Translations under genes and position numbers: made by a program
The notes under the pieces: generated by a model
Databases searched by the model: none
Seen by the model: the letters and a program-made list of their open reading frames with translations, nothing else
What the model was told of the DNA's origin: nothing
From: Candidatus Altiarchaeota archaeon
Lineage (GTDB): Archaea > Altiarchaeota > Altiarchaeia > IMC4 > QMZM01
Direction of reading: 5' to 3'
DNA length: 36,187 bases
Assembly (NCBI GenBank): GCA_034716875.1
Contig: JAYEKX010000097.1
Coordinates: 1-36,187 of the forward strand
Shown: positions 1,697 to 10,615 of the stretch, in pieces
How the letters are laid out: the number at the start of each line of letters is the position of its first letter
Position numbering within the stretch: position 1 is the stretch's first letter

Positions 1697-2353
1697 ATGG
1701 ATGTTTTATTTCTGAAAGTCAGTGATTTAAGGGATTCAGAGTATATTAGGGAGGGAACCCGAAATCTATTGAAGAGTCGGTTTGGGTTATGTGACACAAT
1801 CGCTCTCTGTGGGCGGATTGATGACATTAAAAACACCAGGTATGGCCCGAGGTTCTGGATAAATGACGGCGAAGTCATACAGGTAACGGTGGGGACATTC
1901 AACAGGAATGTTAGACGGGATGCCGAGAAAATTCTTGGGAAATTTAAGCCCGGGGGGAAGAAGTTATACCTCCTGGTGTATGGAAACCCCTACGAAACCG
2001 ACCAGCTGTATATCAACGTAAACAAAGATAACGGAGTGATCCTGGTAGATGAAATAGTCTATAAAAAATTCCATGAATTAAGGAAACAAAACAGGGAATA
2101 CTTAACCCGGAAAACAACAGCCTCGCCCGTAACGGCTCCTGCTGAAAGAGGAAGTAGTCCGGAGGAGGTCTCCAGCTCCGTGATCATGGAGTTCATTAGA
2201 GGGAGGGACGTGGGGGAGGGGATAAAGGTTTCAGAGATATTTCAACAGTTTAATAAGATCCCTAAGGAAGCTGTGGAAGAAAAAATGATTGAGTTGATGG
2301 AGATGGGGGATCTTTATGAACCCAAGCCAAGGCTGTTAAAAGTAATTAAGTAG
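1697..2353 (+). CDS. RPA32-like or RPA-associated subunit (OB fold plus C-terminal winged helix)
   Basis: 218 aa. Starts 5 nt after the RPA-like gene. Has an OB-like core and a C-terminal wHTH-like segment (VIMEFIRGRD..GIKVSEIFQQF...MGDLYEPK). Confidence 0.45.
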   Translation: MDVLFLKVSDLRDSEYIREGTRNLLKSRFGLCDTIALCGRIDDIKNTRYGPRFWINDGEVIQVTVGTFNRNVRRDAEKILGKFKPGGKKLYLLVYGNPYETDQLYINVNKDNGVILVDEIVYKKFHELRKQNREYLTRKTTASPVTAPAERGSSPEEVSSSVIMEFIRGRDVGEGIKVSEIFQQFNKIPKEAVEEKMIELMEMGDLYEPKPRLLKVIK

Positions 2354-3136
2354 CCCAAAGATTACTGCCAGTAAACCAAAGATTATGCAGAATAAATCGA
2401 AACGCACTCTTCTGGCGAATCTCATAAGGATGTCAATGGTCAGGTATCCGAATAGGGAGGCGGCTATTATCCCCGCCATCATATTCTGGATTTCCACACC
2501 CCCTGTTTCACCCTTTAGGGTGATGAAAGATATTAACCCCAGGACGGCGGGTATGGACATGAGGAAGGAAAGCCGGAGGGCGTTTTCCTGCTCAACACCC
2601 CTGAACAATAAAGCCGCTACAGTAACCCCTGACCTTGATATGCCGGGTAGAACAGTGAAGCCCTGCGCTAAACCAACAACAGCCATATCCAGGAAGGTTA
2701 TATCCCCCAGCCCCCTGGTTTTCTCCCTATTTCGTGAAAAATAAAGAATCAAACCCGTTAATATCAGAAATAAACCCACCCCGGCAGTTATTAACTCCCC
2801 TTGCTCTCTGTTTTGTTCAAACCACGAGTGCATCATCATATACGCTGGAATACCGGTTAATGCAGAAAACAGGGTTGAAACAATCAGAAACACGGTGAGC
2901 TTATCACTCCTGAACCGGGATAGAGACCTTAAAACACCATAAACCTCCCCACGAAATTTCAGAACCACCGCCAACAAGGTTCCGAGATGCAGGTAAAGCG
3001 CGAACGAAAGTGCCGTATCAGGACTAACACCCATCGATTCTATCATGCTGAGGACGACCTGACCTGAACTGCTTACAGGCAGCCACTCAGTAATCCCCTG
3101 GAGAAACCCTAAAACCAGGGATGAAATTAAGTCCAT
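2336..3136 (-). CDS. uppP: undecaprenyl-diphosphate phosphatase
   Basis: 266 aa polytopic membrane protein. N-terminal GITEWLPVSSSGQ and PGISRSG motifs are characteristic of BacA/UppP. Confidence 0.9.
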   Translation of the reverse strand: MDLISSLVLGFLQGITEWLPVSSSGQVVLSMIESMGVSPDTALSFALYLHLGTLLAVVLKFRGEVYGVLRSLSRFRSDKLTVFLIVSTLFSALTGIPAYMMMHSWFEQNREQGELITAGVGLFLILTGLILYFSRNREKTRGLGDITFLDMAVVGLAQGFTVLPGISRSGVTVAALLFRGVEQENALRLSFLMSIPAVLGLISFITLKGETGGVEIQNMMAGIIAASLFGYLTIDILMRFARRVRFDLFCIIFGLLAVIFGLLNYF

Positions 3137-3272
3137 ATTAATTCCTGAATTCTATTAATATATATAATATCTCATACTAAACAAGAAAAATTTTTTCTTA
3201 AAGAAAAAATTTTTGTGTCATAATTTTTTGACTCTAAGTCAAAAAATTGATGATCTTTACTCATCTCAGCTT

Positions 3273-3346
3273 GGGCCTGTAGCTCAGTTTGGTAGAGCAC
3301 CCGGCTTTTAACCGGGTGGTCGCGGGTTCGAACCCCGTCGGGCCCA
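3273..3346 (+). tRNA. tRNA-Lys (UUU)
   Basis: Cloverleaf read by hand. Acceptor GGGCCTG/CGGGCCC with discriminator A. Anticodon arm CCCGG-CTTTTAA-CCGGG. T-arm GCGGGTTCGAACCCCGT. No encoded CCA. Confidence 0.9.
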
Positions 3347-5162: not shown

Positions 5163-5259
5163 GGGCCCGTAGATCAGACTGGTAGATCGTCCGCTTGGCA
5201 AGAAAAAAGAAGGAGTTCCAAAATGCGGGAGGCCTCGGGTTCAAATCCCGACGGGTCCA
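5163..5259 (+). tRNA. tRNA-Ala (GGC) with a 23-nt intron at the canonical 37/38 position
   Basis: Acceptor GGGCCCG/CGGGTCC includes the G3:U70 Ala identity pair, with discriminator A. The anticodon stem TCCGC/GCGGG encloses 30 nt (TTGGCA + intron + T). The intron segment TTCCAA can pair with the anticodon region TTGG. The mature length would be 74 nt. Confidence 0.8.
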
Positions 5260-6487: not shown

Positions 6488-6613
6488 GGGACCGTAGGGT
6501 AGCTTGGTTTATCCTACCAGCTCGGGGTTTCGTTGAGGTCGAGTCCCCATTAAATAGATTCGAAACAGTGATACGAAAAGCTGGTGACCTGAGTTCAAAT
6601 CTCGGCGGTCCCA
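6488..6613 (+). tRNA. intron-containing tRNA, most likely tRNA-Pro (CGG), intron ~50 nt
   Basis: Acceptor GGGACCG/CGGTCCC with discriminator A. D-arm GGGT..ATCC. Anticodon stem ACCAG/CTGGT with CTCGGG before the insert. T-arm CTGAGTTCAAATCTCGG. The 126-nt total implies a ~50-nt intron near 37/38. My fold leaves an unusually short variable loop, so the isotype is less certain than the tRNA call itself. Confidence 0.7.
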
Positions 6614-6675
6614 AATCCCCCCCCTCCATATCAACATATCTGGAAATTTATTGGTGAAAACAAATTAATTAACAC

Positions 6676-6749
6676 GCCTCCGTGGCTCAGCCTGGTAGAG
6701 CGGCAGACTTGTAATCTGCATGTCGAGGGTTCAAATCCCTTCGGGGGCT
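6676..6749 (+). tRNA. tRNA-Thr (UGU)
   Basis: Acceptor GCCTCCG/CGGGGGC with discriminator T. Anticodon arm GCAGA-CTTGTAA-TCTGC. T-arm GAGGGTTCAAATCCCTT. Confidence 0.9.
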
Positions 6750-6835
6750 ACTAAAAGGGTCAAATCCCTCTGGGTTTGACCACGTCTAATGCGGTTGTAT
6801 TTCTCTCTAGGAGAGAACGAGGTGAATTAGAAAAA

Positions 6836-7732
6836 ATGCACATCCCAAAAGCCCGTGAGTTGAATGTTTTCTTATCTGGCGTTTCACATGAATTTAAGGG
6901 TGAAAAGGAAAATTTAAAACACACATTAGATGAATATCTTGGGCTATCTGTATATTGTTCTGAGGCAGATAATGAGCCAGATTTTGCAGAAGCATGGCCT
7001 AAGCTTAAGAAGGAAATTGAATCTTCACATATATTTGCTTTGTTTATAGGCGTTGAATTTGGCAGTCCATCAGACAAAGAAGATATTTCAGTGACTCAAA
7101 AAGAGTATGAATTAGCAAGAGATTTAAAAAAGCCAATAATTGTTTTTACGACGGGAAATATATATAGACAAATTGAGGATGAACGTCAAAGAAGGTTTTG
7201 TAATCAGGTCACGAATTCCGATAAAGACGGTCTGTGGGTTCCATCACTTAAGGGGGGAGATATACAAGATGTGAAAAAATTATCGGAGTACATGATGGAA
7301 TACGTTTTTTTAACTGCAGCAGATGCACTTCCCGTTCTAAACAATGAAGATGAAGCTGGTAATTTTTATGTTAAAATTAGCATAATCAGTAGGAGTAGGG
7401 CATTGACACACGATCCAGATAATAATGAAGTTGATATTTTAATGACAATAATGATTCAGAATAGAGACAAATATGGACATTATGTCGATGCTATTTGGTT
7501 GGAGAAATTTGGGCGAAAACACAAATTAACCACATATGATACAAGCCATTATACTGGGGGCATGAATATTAATAATTCTCCAATTAAAATCGAGAAAATG
7601 GATAAAGTTATATACCGAACAACTATTAAGGTGCGCACTCCAAAAGATTTTGATATTGATGAATTCAGAGAAGAGCTTGAGAAGGATTTTAGAAGTTGCT
7701 TACCAATAAAATGTAGATGCTTGTCTGTATAA
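6836..7732 (+). CDS. DUF4062 / TIR-like (nucleoside 2-deoxyribosyltransferase-like) domain protein with an unknown beta-rich C-terminal domain
   Basis: The start was reset from TTG 6776 to ATG 6836, which follows GAGGTGA at 6819-6825. The N-terminus VFLSGVSHEFKGEKENL...SHIFALFIGVEFGS...ISVTQKEYELARDLKKPIIVF follows the DUF4062 pattern as I recall it. I recognise no motif in the C-terminal ~170 aa. Confidence 0.6.
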   Translation: MHIPKARELNVFLSGVSHEFKGEKENLKHTLDEYLGLSVYCSEADNEPDFAEAWPKLKKEIESSHIFALFIGVEFGSPSDKEDISVTQKEYELARDLKKPIIVFTTGNIYRQIEDERQRRFCNQVTNSDKDGLWVPSLKGGDIQDVKKLSEYMMEYVFLTAADALPVLNNEDEAGNFYVKISIISRSRALTHDPDNNEVDILMTIMIQNRDKYGHYVDAIWLEKFGRKHKLTTYDTSHYTGGMNINNSPIKIEKMDKVIYRTTIKVRTPKDFDIDEFREELEKDFRSCLPIKCRCLSV

Positions 7733-7913
7733 CCTGCAGCCTACACTAAGTATCTCTGGTTATCTGTTACTGCCCTGCATGTGGCAAGAAGGTTTTCATC
7801 AAGGAGGTACCTAATGGTGAATGCTCTATTAAGTTCATGCACTGCGGATACGAGATAGCGATAGATGAGCAATCAGGGGGGGGGGAAACTAAACCCACAA
7901 ACTCCAAAAGAAG

Positions 7914-8948
7914 ATGGTCAACGAAGAAAAACAAAAAAGAAAAAATAATGATGAGCTTGTGATTGATAATTTTCTTCATGCCAAAGTTAGTGTGCATACC
8001 CTTTCTGGAAGTTGGATGAAGAACTTTTTAGCCTTTTCAATCTTTTTTGTTATATTGTTTTATCTGGTAACTGAGGGTAAGCCGGTGGACATAAATGCGC
8101 TTTCTACGTTAAAGTCTGCAGCTTTAGGTTTGTTATCTGTCGCTTCTACAGTGCTCTTTCTTGCTTTTCTTTTTTGCGTTTATACAAAATATATCTTTTT
8201 GGGCCTTATTTTGCGATTAACTTCTCAAGATGTTGTTTCCACGCTTCTTATCGAACTCGTTGAAGAAAGATTAAGGTACAACTATCTGCGTGGTGTGCAA
8301 TACAAAAAAGTAAACAATTTATTGGATGACATACATTCTGAGTTAGAACGTATAACAAATAAACTGGATAGATATGATAAAAACTCAATAGATCAAATTA
8401 AGGAGGATATTTATGGCATCAAATGCCTTTTTTCTCGTGATGGAGCTATCTCAAATTTGATTTTTCTTTGCTCTATTGATAGTTTTCTTGAAATTAAAGA
8501 TGATTTGATTGACATATCCAAAAAAATTAAAAAAGAGGATTATGCTGCTCTTAGATTTACCCCAAAAAAGCTTAAAGAAAAAATAGATGACTTAGACGAA
8601 TATCGGAAAAAAGTTCCGCAAGAAACTAAAATACATCCAGTTAAACATTGGTTATCTACAATTTGGACCAAATTAGCCTTCTATTTAGGAGATAAAGAGC
8701 TGGTGATACGAATTGCAAGCCTAATAAAGGCTTATGAGCAACTTGCTTTAACGCTCATTTCATTGGTTTCACTTTTATTTCTTTCAGCATTAGTTCTCCT
8801 TGGTCATGGTGAGTGGGACACACTTGACTTTTGGATAGGATTCCTATATAAAGGACTCATACCCACAACTTTAGTAATTCTGACTTACAAAATATTTATG
8901 TTCATACTAACAAATCTTACGAGTTTTTCTGATGACTATGATTATTAG
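7914..8948 (+). CDS. multi-pass membrane protein with a central charged helical region (function unknown; candidate effector)
   Basis: 344 aa. Hydrophobic segments are FLAFSIFFVILFYLV, AALGLLSVASTVLFLAFLFCVYTKYIFLGLIL, LALTLISLVSLLFLSALVLLG and LIPTTLVILTYKIFMFILT. A ~170-aa K/E/D-rich helical stretch lies between them. The start is uncertain (ATG 7914 or the later ATG giving MKNFLAF). Confidence 0.55.
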   Translation: MVNEEKQKRKNNDELVIDNFLHAKVSVHTLSGSWMKNFLAFSIFFVILFYLVTEGKPVDINALSTLKSAALGLLSVASTVLFLAFLFCVYTKYIFLGLILRLTSQDVVSTLLIELVEERLRYNYLRGVQYKKVNNLLDDIHSELERITNKLDRYDKNSIDQIKEDIYGIKCLFSRDGAISNLIFLCSIDSFLEIKDDLIDISKKIKKEDYAALRFTPKKLKEKIDDLDEYRKKVPQETKIHPVKHWLSTIWTKLAFYLGDKELVIRIASLIKAYEQLALTLISLVSLLFLSALVLLGHGEWDTLDFWIGFLYKGLIPTTLVILTYKIFMFILTNLTSFSDDYDY

Positions 8949-8998
8949 AAAGGATTATTTATCTAACTATCTAATCCAAACCTTTTCTTCTGGTCCCG

Positions 8999-9061
8999 CC
9001 TTCAATTATTTATACGTATTTTAAGTATATATCGATTTCGTTTTATTTATCCTTCCCTTTC
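8999..9061. repeat. 63-bp direct repeat, copy 1
   Basis: CCTTCAATTATTTATACGTATTTTAAGTATATATCGATTTCGTTTTATTTATCCTTCCCTTTC. Identical to 10553-10615 except A9005 versus G10559. Confidence 0.95.
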
Positions 9062-9062
9062 G

Positions 9063-9158
9063 GAGGCGTTTGAGAAGTTAAAGGGCTTGAAAACAGAAGA
9101 CAAACACCTTCATAAATGGATCAACAAGGCTTTAGACGACCTGAGGAACGAAGATTGA
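9063..9158 (+). pseudogene. start-less gene fragment truncated at the repeat boundary
   Basis: The frame reads EAFEKLKGLKTEDKHLHKWINKALDDLRNED*. It continues upstream through the repeat with no ATG, GTG or TTG back to the stop at 8964-8966. This looks like a relic cut at the 9061/9062 junction. Confidence 0.3.
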
Positions 9159-9419
9159 ACAAATCGTTCCGAAGCGAAGCCTTCAAATCAGAATATAAGC
9201 TCATCTGTCCGTGAAGGTTACGAAAACAAGTGAGGAATGAACGCAGTTTGAGTAAGCTTGACGGATCTTCTTATACGCATTGATTATAGTTTCGTTGCAG
9301 ATCTACAGTCGATTTTAAGTGTTTTCTGCACAGCCGACTTCAATCCTTTGCCATAGTCTTTGTAATCCCATACCTTTTTGATACTAAATCAGAAACCTTA
9401 GCTGAAGCGCCAGAATAGG

Positions 9420-10049
9420 TCAAATCCTTGCAGAAGCATCTCCTTCAAAATCTAATGCACCGTCGTTTGCTACAATTGCCGATAAGGAAGGAGATGCTAA
9501 TGGTTCTTTTGAATAAATTAATTCCCTAATCGATCTTGCTGCATGTTCATGGGACTTTTTAACAGCCTCATCCACACTTTTACCTTTGAGTAGCTCTCTC
9601 ATTATCACATTTGAACCCTCAAGTATTGGTTTAGCGACTGGATCTAGCAGAGGATTGCACTCCCATTTATGCTGTCTTGCTATCCAAAATTTCTTTTTAT
9701 ATCCTATAAAACTACGACATCCCTTTTCTACTGCTTCCGGCCCCAACTCAACTAAGCATTCACAAGCTCTGGTATATGCAATTGTACCCTTGAAAACATC
9801 TGCAGAATCCAGATTAATGAATTCTTTTTTTTGATTGTTAATTAAACTGTTTTTACTGCCATGCCCATTAAAGAAAATTAAACTTGGTTGTCTCTTCTTT
9901 ACCCTCCCCCTAAGATTTCTCTCAGTTATATCGCCACCCTCAATTTTATTAACGATAAAATCTCTTACTTCTGCCTCCTCTATGATGGCATTAGACCACT
10001 TAAAAAGATAGCTTGTTTGGATATCGTGATTCGTTCTTATGATAATCAT
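9420..10049 (-). CDS. minimal caspase-like (clan CD-type His-Gly / Cys dyad) protein, putative cysteine peptidase
   Basis: 209 aa. Hydrophobic strand plus SLIFFNGHGS (H63) and TIAYTRACEC (C96), each following a beta-strand-like stretch. The N-terminal MIIIRTNHD strand plus helix layout resembles the caspase/gingipain/CHAT fold. This rests on pattern recognition only. Confidence 0.45.
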   Translation of the reverse strand: MIIIRTNHDIQTSYLFKWSNAIIEEAEVRDFIVNKIEGGDITERNLRGRVKKRQPSLIFFNGHGSKNSLINNQKKEFINLDSADVFKGTIAYTRACECLVELGPEAVEKGCRSFIGYKKKFWIARQHKWECNPLLDPVAKPILEGSNVIMRELLKGKSVDEAVKKSHEHAARSIRELIYSKEPLASPSLSAIVANDGALDFEGDASARI

Positions 10050-10058
10050 CGTAATAAC

Positions 10059-10337
10059 TCAGAAGTCAATGGATTCATCAAGTATCGTTGACATTTTTCT
10101 GATGAAGTTAATCTGCATATCTATTGTCTCTTTACCCACCTCTGATTCGTCTTCTACCTCCCGGATCAATTCATCCCTAGTGAAATCTCCAAAACTGCCA
10201 ATCGAAAAACTGACATCTGGAGGCATGGCATAGAGTCTCTCCTTCACCAGTTTTTTGAGATATTCAATATCAGCAAAAGGGGATTCACCCCTCTTGTCTG
10301 AGTGAAAAGATGAAATCTTTTTCTTGTCTTCAGTCAT
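10059..10337 (-). CDS. small acidic hypothetical protein (middle gene of the 3-gene cassette)
   Basis: 92 aa. Its ATG directly abuts the TAA of the upstream 66-aa ORF (TAAATG). A 9-nt gap separates it from the downstream caspase-like ORF. No motif recognised. Confidence 0.5.
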   Translation of the reverse strand: MTEDKKKISSFHSDKRGESPFADIEYLKKLVKERLYAMPPDVSFSIGSFGDFTRDELIREVEDESEVGKETIDMQINFIRKMSTILDESIDF

Positions 10338-10538
10338 TTATAACACCCCGATTTCTTTCAGACGCTCCAATAGTACAGCTGCTTTTTCAGTATTATGCAT
10401 AATTTCGGCTTTTGCAGTAGACCAATTAAACGTATCCTCACCTATGACGACAATTATCTCCTTTCTTAGGGGCTGTGGAACATTAGCAAATGTCCGTAAG
10501 AATTTTGCCTTTAACTCCTGATATTCATTATCATCCAT
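10338..10538 (-). CDS. small hypothetical protein (first gene of the 3-gene cassette)
   Basis: 66 aa. The ATG at 10538 lies 14 nt from repeat copy 2. On the minus strand, a TATAAATA element in that repeat sits about 27-30 nt upstream of the ATG, which suggests a leaderless or near-leaderless mRNA. Confidence 0.5.
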   Translation of the reverse strand: MDDNEYQELKAKFLRTFANVPQPLRKEIIVVIGEDTFNWSTAKAEIMHNTEKAAVLLERLKEIGVL

Positions 10539-10552
10539 CGTCTAAATCCCCC

Positions 10553-10615
10553 CCTTCAGTTATTTATACGTATTTTAAGTATATATCGATTTCGTTTTAT
10601 TTATCCTTCCCTTTC
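10553..10615. repeat. 63-bp direct repeat, copy 2 (probably carries the promoter of the minus-strand cassette)
   Basis: 62/63 identical to 8999-9061. A/T-rich with several TATA-like elements on both strands. Confidence 0.95.

Follow-up and report, generated by a model that had tools for sequence, protein, structure and literature searches.

A DUF4062 protein with a conserved auxiliary domain, encoded upstream of an orphan membrane protein gene in an altiarchaeal genome, is a candidate stand-alone NADase of antiviral defence

We analyzed a 36,187-nucleotide stretch of DNA (contig JAYEKX010000097.1, hereafter the window), which according to its public annotation is a contig of a Candidatus Altiarchaeota metagenome-assembled genome (MAG). 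An AT-rich, tRNA-adjacent island in the window carries two neighbouring open reading frames (ORFs), ORF A and ORF B. The reading that we favour, with modest confidence, is that ORF A is a stand-alone NAD+ glycohydrolase (NADase) defence candidate, composed of a DUF4062 domain and an auxiliary (AUX) domain, and that ORF B encodes an orphan membrane protein with no link to it. The N-terminal TIR-like domain of ORF A would be an NAD+ glycohydrolase, and Glu90 its catalytic residue. The protein would presumably be inactive until its beta-rich C-terminal domain engages a viral cue, and activation would then lead to oligomerisation, NAD+ depletion and abortive infection, as in the Swarozyc, Evangelion and Vulcan systems. 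ORF B would be a genuine orphan protein with four transmembrane (TM) segments that lies downstream in the same island by chance. ORF A and its parts are located as follows.

6836..7732, forward strand: ORF A, 298 amino acids (aa), with an N-terminal DUF4062 (NIR) TIR-like domain and, after it, a conserved auxiliary domain at the C-terminus.
6866..7315, forward strand: DUF4062/TIR-like alpha-beta domain (Pfam residues 11-94; modelled domain to about residue 160).
7103..7105, forward strand: GAG codon of Glu90, the predicted catalytic glutamate, in the invariant T-x-K-E-Y motif.
7328..7729, forward strand: AUX domain, residues ~165-298, starting with PVLNNEDEAGNFYV; predicted beta-sandwich plus C-terminal helix.

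ORF A is a genuine DUF4062 protein with a TIR- or deoxyribosyltransferase-like fold, as a sequence-only reading of the window had proposed. Pfam PF13271 (DUF4062) matched residues 11-94 (E=1.1e-9; 38.8 bits, gathering score 24.7), and the same family was detected in the relatives of ORF A (39.2 bits in P0002, 39.1 bits in P0003, and by precomputed annotation in P0005-P0007). A profile of the ORF A family matched the solved DUF4062 chain of the Swarozyc protein KpSwz (PDB 10wc, 11cq and 11cv) over residues 7-107 (E=0.0011). The start at ATG 6836, to which that reading had reset the gene, was also borne out: the aligned Met (M-x-x-P...L-x-VF-[LI]-SGV) is the first residue of each of the five homologues, and the deposited public protein is likewise 298 aa long. 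No canonical TIR family reached threshold in the ORF A family, the nearest being TIR_2 in P0003 only (E=0.011).

The AlphaFold2 model of ORF A had a mean predicted local distance difference test score (pLDDT) of 59.7, with ~70-80 in the N-terminal domain and 35-65 in the C-terminal domain. Foldseek searches with the N-terminal domain recovered TIR structures in the PDB at a probability of ~1.0, including SARM1 TIR (6o0u_A, TMt 0.60), RPS4 TIR (4c6r_A, 0.57) and SPARTA TIR-APAZ (8i87_C). The model also matched viral nucleoside deoxyribosyltransferases, a CMP hydrolase and a TIR/WD40 protein. Since flavodoxins were matched as well, the TIR- or deoxyribosyltransferase-like, flavodoxin-type fold is a generic one. 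Whole-chain matches of the model to GH3 glucosidases and translation GTPases reflect no more than a shared layout, an alpha-beta domain with a beta domain after it.

The predicted active site was examined in the HMMER alignment, in which the stretch S-V-T-Q-K-E-Y of ORF A lies opposite S-F-T-E-K-A-F of the KpSwz chain. A replacement of the catalytic Glu by Gln88 in ORF A was considered and dropped, the PDB chain being an E97A mutant. R18 and D71, the KpSwz residues named by Osinski et al., occupy chain positions 5 and 58; because of this offset of 13, Ala84 of chain 10wc_A is residue 97, and it is aligned with ORF A Glu90. E90-Y91 also fits the "acidic-SYT ... E87-Y88" catalytic region of the Evangelion protein Eva01, and the catalytic Glu equivalents of E90 are E97 in KpSwz, E87 in Eva01 and E108 in PsAvs2. 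T87, K89, E90 and Y91 are invariant in six of six family members, position 88 being Q or M. F12 and W54 are invariant in the family too, W54 being the counterpart of W in the Q/W/E motif of DUF4062. Because E90, F12, W54 and the surrounding motif are all kept, the DUF4062 domain of ORF A looks catalytically competent.

The second half of ORF A is conserved along with the first. Two database searches returned five full-length relatives (P0002, P0003, P0005, P0006 and P0007), all metagenomic, and a profile search contributed three of the true family members. The resulting six-member family shows 39-56% pairwise identity and is conserved over its full length, including both domains. Its most strongly conserved block is PVLNNEDEAGNFYV, at the domain junction, and identity within the AUX domain is ~35-43% across the six proteins. 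This conservation points to purifying selection on the two-domain protein. The AUX domain (~130 aa) had no match in Pfam, the PDB or PADLOC, and tblastn found it in the five family relatives only. It had earlier been described as an unplaced beta-rich C-terminal domain, and that description stands: it is predicted, at low confidence, to be beta-rich, and it matched no family that we searched.

The family is probably archaeal. No member was found in GTDB species genomes or IMG/VR, and a plasmid search with ORF A gave a single match, a Sinorhizobium DUF4062 protein with 31% identity over the N-terminal domain. A scan of JGI metagenomes returned only DUF4062 proteins of ~430 aa, which have the N-terminal domain alone in common with ORF A. 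These were picked by the pattern ISITQKEY, and their motif is no independent evidence. The ~430-aa proteins (L005-L016) carry ISITQKEY as ORF A does, together with a different, unannotated C-terminal region of ~300 aa, and one of them adjoins a KAP-family NTPase of 1106 aa.

The architecture of ORF A can be placed among recently described defence systems. Three 2026 preprints report that DUF4062 (NIR) is a TIR-like NADase with the products ADP-ribose (ADPR) and nicotinamide (bioRxiv 10.64898/2026.05.01.722283; 10.64898/2026.06.25.731849; 10.64898/2026.09.04.749371). Conversion of NAD+ to ADPR and nicotinamide is established for KpSwz, PsAvs2, Vulcan, Vesta and TEP1, and in Swarozyc, Evangelion, Vulcan and Avs2-NIR the DUF4062 domain is the NADase effector and the AUX region is required. 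The three preprints report no characterized archaeal member and no membrane partner. The sequence-only reading held that no described system has the composition seen here; this is now outdated, Swarozyc, Evangelion and Vulcan being self-contained, single-protein NADase systems built from DUF4062 plus an auxiliary domain.

Swarozyc is a single protein that requires its AUX domain and has the phage portal as its activator (Osinski et al., bioRxiv 10.64898/2026.05.01.722283). KpSwz and ORF A are alike in being a single polypeptide of ~300 aa with an N-terminal DUF4062 domain, an aligned catalytic Glu (predicted in ORF A) and a C-terminal auxiliary domain. KpSwz has a helical stalk and a portal-binding AUX domain, whereas the AUX domain of ORF A is predicted to be beta-rich, and the family profile gave no KpSwz match over residues 108-298, where a Swz-type auxiliary domain was looked for. 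ORF A also differs in its archaeal MAG origin, and a portal trigger and "bouquet" oligomers are not to be assumed for it.

Evangelion is a single gene with a conserved core and a diversified AUX region that co-evolves with it, and its defence is abolished both by E87A and by AUX truncation (Ibarra-Chavez et al., bioRxiv 10.64898/2026.06.25.731849). ORF A likewise combines a DUF4062 core and an AUX region in one gene. Compared by the published motifs, it retains the strand-1 F as F12, the [ST]-x-T-x-x-E-Y motif as T87..E90-Y91 and the W of the Q/W/E motif as W54, whereas the Q and E of that last motif are not kept, ORF A reading A/T-W-P. The Evangelion lineages were defined among ~6,000 bacterial proteins, which are largely plasmid-borne. 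Vulcan consists of NIR and HEAT repeats, and Vesta of a small NIR protein with an uncharacterized C-terminal domain and a dispensable alkaline phosphatase partner (Le Mouellic et al., bioRxiv 10.64898/2026.09.04.749371). The HEAT-repeat AUX of Vulcan differs from the predicted beta-rich AUX of ORF A. The Vesta protein VstA resembles ORF A as a small NIR protein whose C-terminal domain is uncharacterized and putatively ligand-binding; the two-gene operon of VstA and VstB illustrates how a DUF4062 protein can share an operon with a conserved partner that defence does not require. No phosphatase family matched ORF B or the other island ORFs. From these comparisons we infer, by analogy, NADase activity, virus sensing by the AUX domain and abortive infection for ORF A. 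Because DUF4062 is itself the effector in every characterized case, no membrane effector would be needed.

The sequence-only reading had instead joined ORF A to the gene downstream as a two-gene defence module. The second gene and the spacer that precedes it are located as follows.

7733..7913, forward strand: spacer of 181 nucleotides (nt), with a start-less zinc-ribbon-like frame and a run of ten G (G10) at 7876-7885.
7914..8948, forward strand: ORF B, 344 aa, an all-helical protein with four TM segments at ~8016-8078, 8115-8213, 8742-8807 and 8841-8918.

Conserved adjacency of the two genes had been set in advance as the test of such a module, and the proposal failed it: ORF B has no homologues, and the neighbours of the ORF A relatives differ. 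None of the 24 related loci that were fetched contained an ORF B-like gene. As far as it is testable, the A-B adjacency is not conserved, and a functional link between the two genes was not demonstrated. Genomic context was available for four family members including the window (P0003, P0005, P0007 and ORF A); the contigs of the closest relatives, P0002 and P0006, stop 111-143 nt past the stop codon and are uninformative. The sole gene downstream of P0005 is convergent and encodes a UPF0259-like membrane protein. The contig of P0007 also encodes PIN, HNH, MazE, AAA/MoxR and TPR proteins. TM proteins near other family members (170 aa at L017, 182 aa at L021) were considered as ORF B relatives and proved to be unrelated.

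Downstream of P0003 and P0007, after 66-72 nt, we found a gene whose product (279 or 277 aa) is soluble and helical and ends in a CPKCG...CENC zinc ribbon; this protein is 70% identical between the two loci. It is followed by a third gene encoding 152 or 120 aa (39% identity). The downstream genes lie at 1203-2630 in the P0003 locus (L001) and at 2002-3328 in the P0007 locus (L017). The two loci show 74.5% nucleotide similarity from the start codon of the A gene exactly to the stop codon of the partner, and their upstream flanks differ. The A gene, the 277/279-aa gene and the 120/152-aa gene are a conserved cassette. The ~278-aa partner had no significant match in Pfam, PADLOC, PHROGs, the PDB or GTDB genomes, and the 120-152-aa protein matched no family, PDB entry or defence library. 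The ~278-aa protein contains an IRSKVEH (Rx4H) motif, which by eye only can be read as HEPN-like. A tblastn search of the window found neither this partner nor the other L001 genes, and ORF B compared with the partner gave E=1.4.

The cassette raises the possibility that the ORF A family works with the ~278-aa zinc-ribbon protein and the third small protein, and that the partner has been lost in the window. On this account ORF A would be left over in a partly disabled or deregulated state, the spacer would keep a remnant of the partner, and ORF B would be unrelated and have arrived later. We consider this distinctly unlikely. The presence of the cassette in two diverged relatives with different flanks argues for it, as does the spacer, whose start-less frame VSLVICYCPACGKKVFIKEVPNGECSIKFMHCGYEIAIDEQSGGG (CYCPACGKK...HCGYEIAIDE) outscores the other five frames in codon usage and is similar to the C-terminal zinc ribbon of the partner (CPKCG...CENCDYVL). 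The island also bears signs of decay: it lacks an integrase, contains a 67-nt segment in duplicate and carries a start-less gene fragment (9062-9160). The likeness of the spacer frame to the partner is weak, however, and not significant, with a shuffle p of ~0.03 for a comparison chosen post hoc, and tblastn detected nothing. Moreover, the P0005 protein is intact and has no such partner, ORF A itself is intact with all conserved motifs present, and the operon partner of the small NIR protein in Vesta is dispensable for defence. Because the spacer carries a start-less coding-like frame, a past rearrangement is suggested. The G10 homopolymer lies 28 nt before the start of ORF B; a frameshift within it that would join the zinc-ribbon frame to ORF B was rejected, an in-frame TAA standing 30 nt before the ORF B ATG.

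ORF B is a real gene by its length and codon bias. At 344 aa it is far longer than the longest ORF (155 aa) obtained when the island sequence (33% GC) was shuffled 300 times, and in every third of the gene the annotated frame has a higher codon score than any of the other five. The GC pattern over the three codon positions is equal in ORF A and ORF B, with third-position values (GC3) of 0.27 and 0.28. Hydropathy placed hydrophobic segments at residues ~33-56, 65-102, 275-300 and 314-338, and the charged helical stretch of ~170 aa between the two TM pairs was assigned to the cytoplasm; the multi-TM layout described earlier is thus real, with two plus two TM segments around this region. We find it very improbable that ORF B is a chance or decaying ORF and not a functional gene, that ORF A is a relic, inactive and without a part in defence, or that both are true. 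Such an account could appeal to the lack of ORF B homologues, by which purifying selection is not measurable, to the low-confidence single-sequence AlphaFold2 model (pLDDT 49.7, unusable) and to the absence of a clear ribosome-binding site. It is countered by the ORF length relative to the shuffles, by a frame-specific codon bias equal to that of ORF A and by the coherent TM topology, and for ORF A by the retention of every invariant family residue.

Searches for ORF B homologues gave only the self-match in 5.8 billion clusters (word index) and in 1.84 billion representatives (full HMMER), and no homologue was found in plasmids (tblastn), IMG/VR, PDB sequences, PHROGs or NCBIfam. Matches to SLATT_6 (PF18169; 15.5-16.8 bits, E=0.013-0.005, gathering score 27.1) and to the PADLOC 2TM effector PDLC00709 (E=0.003-0.006) both fell in the helical region just after TM2, collinear with the SLATT layout. 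The charged region also attracts coiled-coil noise, as seen with FliJ and AAA_23. In ORF B, as in the SLATT and CBASS 2TM effectors, a helical cytoplasmic region comes after two TM helices near the N-terminus; unlike those effectors, ORF B has an extra C-terminal TM pair and no nucleotide cyclase or SLOG partner. The SLATT-like logic earlier ascribed to ORF B, with no homology asserted, has a counterpart in this faint collinear signal, whose scores lie below threshold. These matches are a lead, not evidence of membership.

Several observations weigh against ORF A as a stand-alone protein unlinked to ORF B. The model of the AUX domain is of low confidence (pLDDT 35-65). P0003 and P0007, 56% identical to each other, keep the three-gene cassette with a second gene that is 70% identical, and family members may not always act alone. 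The island contains no known defence gene by PADLOC and is flanked by housekeeping genes. ORF A and ORF B are co-directional, 181 nt apart and near-equal in GC3, neither a terminator-like element nor an obvious TATA box was seen in the spacer, and co-transcription of the two genes is possible. The best matches of ORF B in two libraries are 2TM-effector families, collinear with its N-terminal TM pair. In addition, to our knowledge no archaeal DUF4062 protein has been characterized, and the function of ORF A is assigned by analogy.

Some of these observations also favour a Thoeris-like pair, which we regard as unlikely. ORF A would sense infection and make an NAD-derived signal, and a SLATT-like ORF B would bind this signal through its cytoplasmic helical domain, oligomerise and breach the membrane; in the relatives, the ~278-aa zinc-ribbon protein would be an alternative effector. 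The orientation of the two genes, the lack of a terminator-like element between them and their matching GC3 fit this account, as do the SLATT_6 (E=0.0053) and PADLOC 2TM-effector (E=0.003) matches just past two TM helices and a weak ThsB match of P0007 (E=0.0049). A conserved TIR-like gene with a swappable downstream gene is the Thoeris pattern, and a TIR protein paired with a SLATT protein is type VII. Osinski et al. noted that operons with DUF4062 may use other mechanisms in addition to NADase activity (bioRxiv 10.64898/2026.05.01.722283).

Against such a pair, co-occurrence cannot be shown for a protein that has no homologues, and the SLATT-type scores lie well under threshold (16.8 versus 27.1 bits) in a noisy, coiled-coil-like region. 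All characterized DUF4062 domains yield ADPR and nicotinamide and are themselves the effectors, and we know of no cyclic ADP-ribose (cADPR) signalling by a DUF4062 protein. P0005 has no co-directional downstream partner, and the apparent decayed coding remnant in the spacer suggests rearrangement rather than a tight operon. The combination of a TIR-like enzyme with a SLATT effector, the logic that the sequence-only reading had proposed, has been described as type VII Thoeris, in which the TIR protein ThsB and the SLATT protein ThsH are linked by cADPR signalling (bioRxiv 10.64898/2025.12.03.692087). The locus resembles it in placing a TIR-type enzyme gene beside a gene for a membrane-spanning effector. 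It differs in that ORF A is a DUF4062 protein and not a canonical ThsB TIR, that ORF B has four TM helices and not two, that the SLATT threshold is not reached and that the pair is not conserved. Even the Thoeris-like account would be a variant of known logic, because TIR and SLATT pairs already constitute type VII. We find it quite improbable that DUF4062 in this family, instead of being a terminal NADase, senses infection and generates a signal in the manner of Thoeris, for an exchangeable effector encoded downstream. That effector would be the SLATT-like ORF B here and the helical Rx4H zinc-ribbon protein in the P0003 and P0007 loci. If true, DUF4062 would for the first time have a part in signalling, and the membrane effector of this archaeal system would be new. 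A stand-alone ORF A beside an unlinked ORF B remains the reading that we prefer.

The island in which both genes lie is tRNA-linked and AT-rich, as had been described.

6676..6749, forward strand: tRNA-Thr (TGT), detected by ARAGORN and by Rfam (tRNA, 67.5 bits); the AT-rich island starts directly 3' of it.

The drop in GC begins right after this tRNA, with values of 0.33-0.39 from there to ~10,700 and ~0.44-0.46 in the flanks. The flanking genes are housekeeping genes, encoding Cbf5/TruB-PUA, ornithine cyclodeaminase, an NTP-transferase/hexapeptide protein and TiaS. Besides ORF A and ORF B on the forward strand, the island holds three reverse-strand genes of 209, 92 and 66 aa. None of the five island ORFs matched a PADLOC defence model, apart from the weak 2TM-effector match of ORF B. 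The island is AT-rich and tRNA-adjacent, and its status as a defence island was not demonstrated. An imperfect copy (83%) of the 3' end of tRNA-Thr (6728-6745) is present at 6757-6774, immediately past the tRNA, and may be the remnant of an integration site. A search of the right end of the island found no matching attachment-site copy of the tRNA-Thr 3' end, and no integrase is encoded in the island.

A 67-nt direct repeat, 97% identical between its copies at 8995-9061 and 10549-10615, flanks the three reverse-strand genes at 9420-10538. On the reverse strand, the repeat contains a TATAAATA box ~30 nt upstream of the ATG of the 66-aa gene. Copy 2 looks like the promoter of the reverse-strand operon; in that case, transcription from copy 1 would run antisense into the 3' end of ORF B. 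Directly after copy 1, at 9062-9160 on the forward strand, a start-less fragment reads AFEKLKGLKTEDKHLHKWINKALDDLRNED* and is probably a truncated small gene; because of this fragment, the island is suggested to be decaying. The 209-aa ORF (9420-10049, reverse strand) contains FFNGHGS and YTRACEC, which by eye are spaced like the His-Gly and Cys dyad of caspase-fold peptidases; it had no match in Pfam, PADLOC, NCBIfam or the PDB. The small genes of 92 and 66 aa come next in its operon. Outside the island, Rfam detected an extra tRNA at 5163-5259 (52.5 bits, 97 nt), probably intron-bearing and missed by ARAGORN, and a weak tRNA-like stretch at 6488-6614 scored in Rfam only as a sub-threshold tmRNA match.

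DUF4062/NIR NADases were recognized as immune effectors only in 2026, and the tested examples are all bacterial or human. The architecture of DUF4062 plus AUX and its motifs are known, and what is new in ORF A is its AUX domain and its archaeal host; at present it is an incremental addition and not a new kind of system. ORF A would extend the DUF4062 family to archaeal virus defence and would add a new beta-rich auxiliary domain to it. The variable downstream genes, the orphan ORF B here and the conserved zinc-ribbon gene in relatives, offer a concrete test of whether DUF4062 proteins can work with partner effectors as well.

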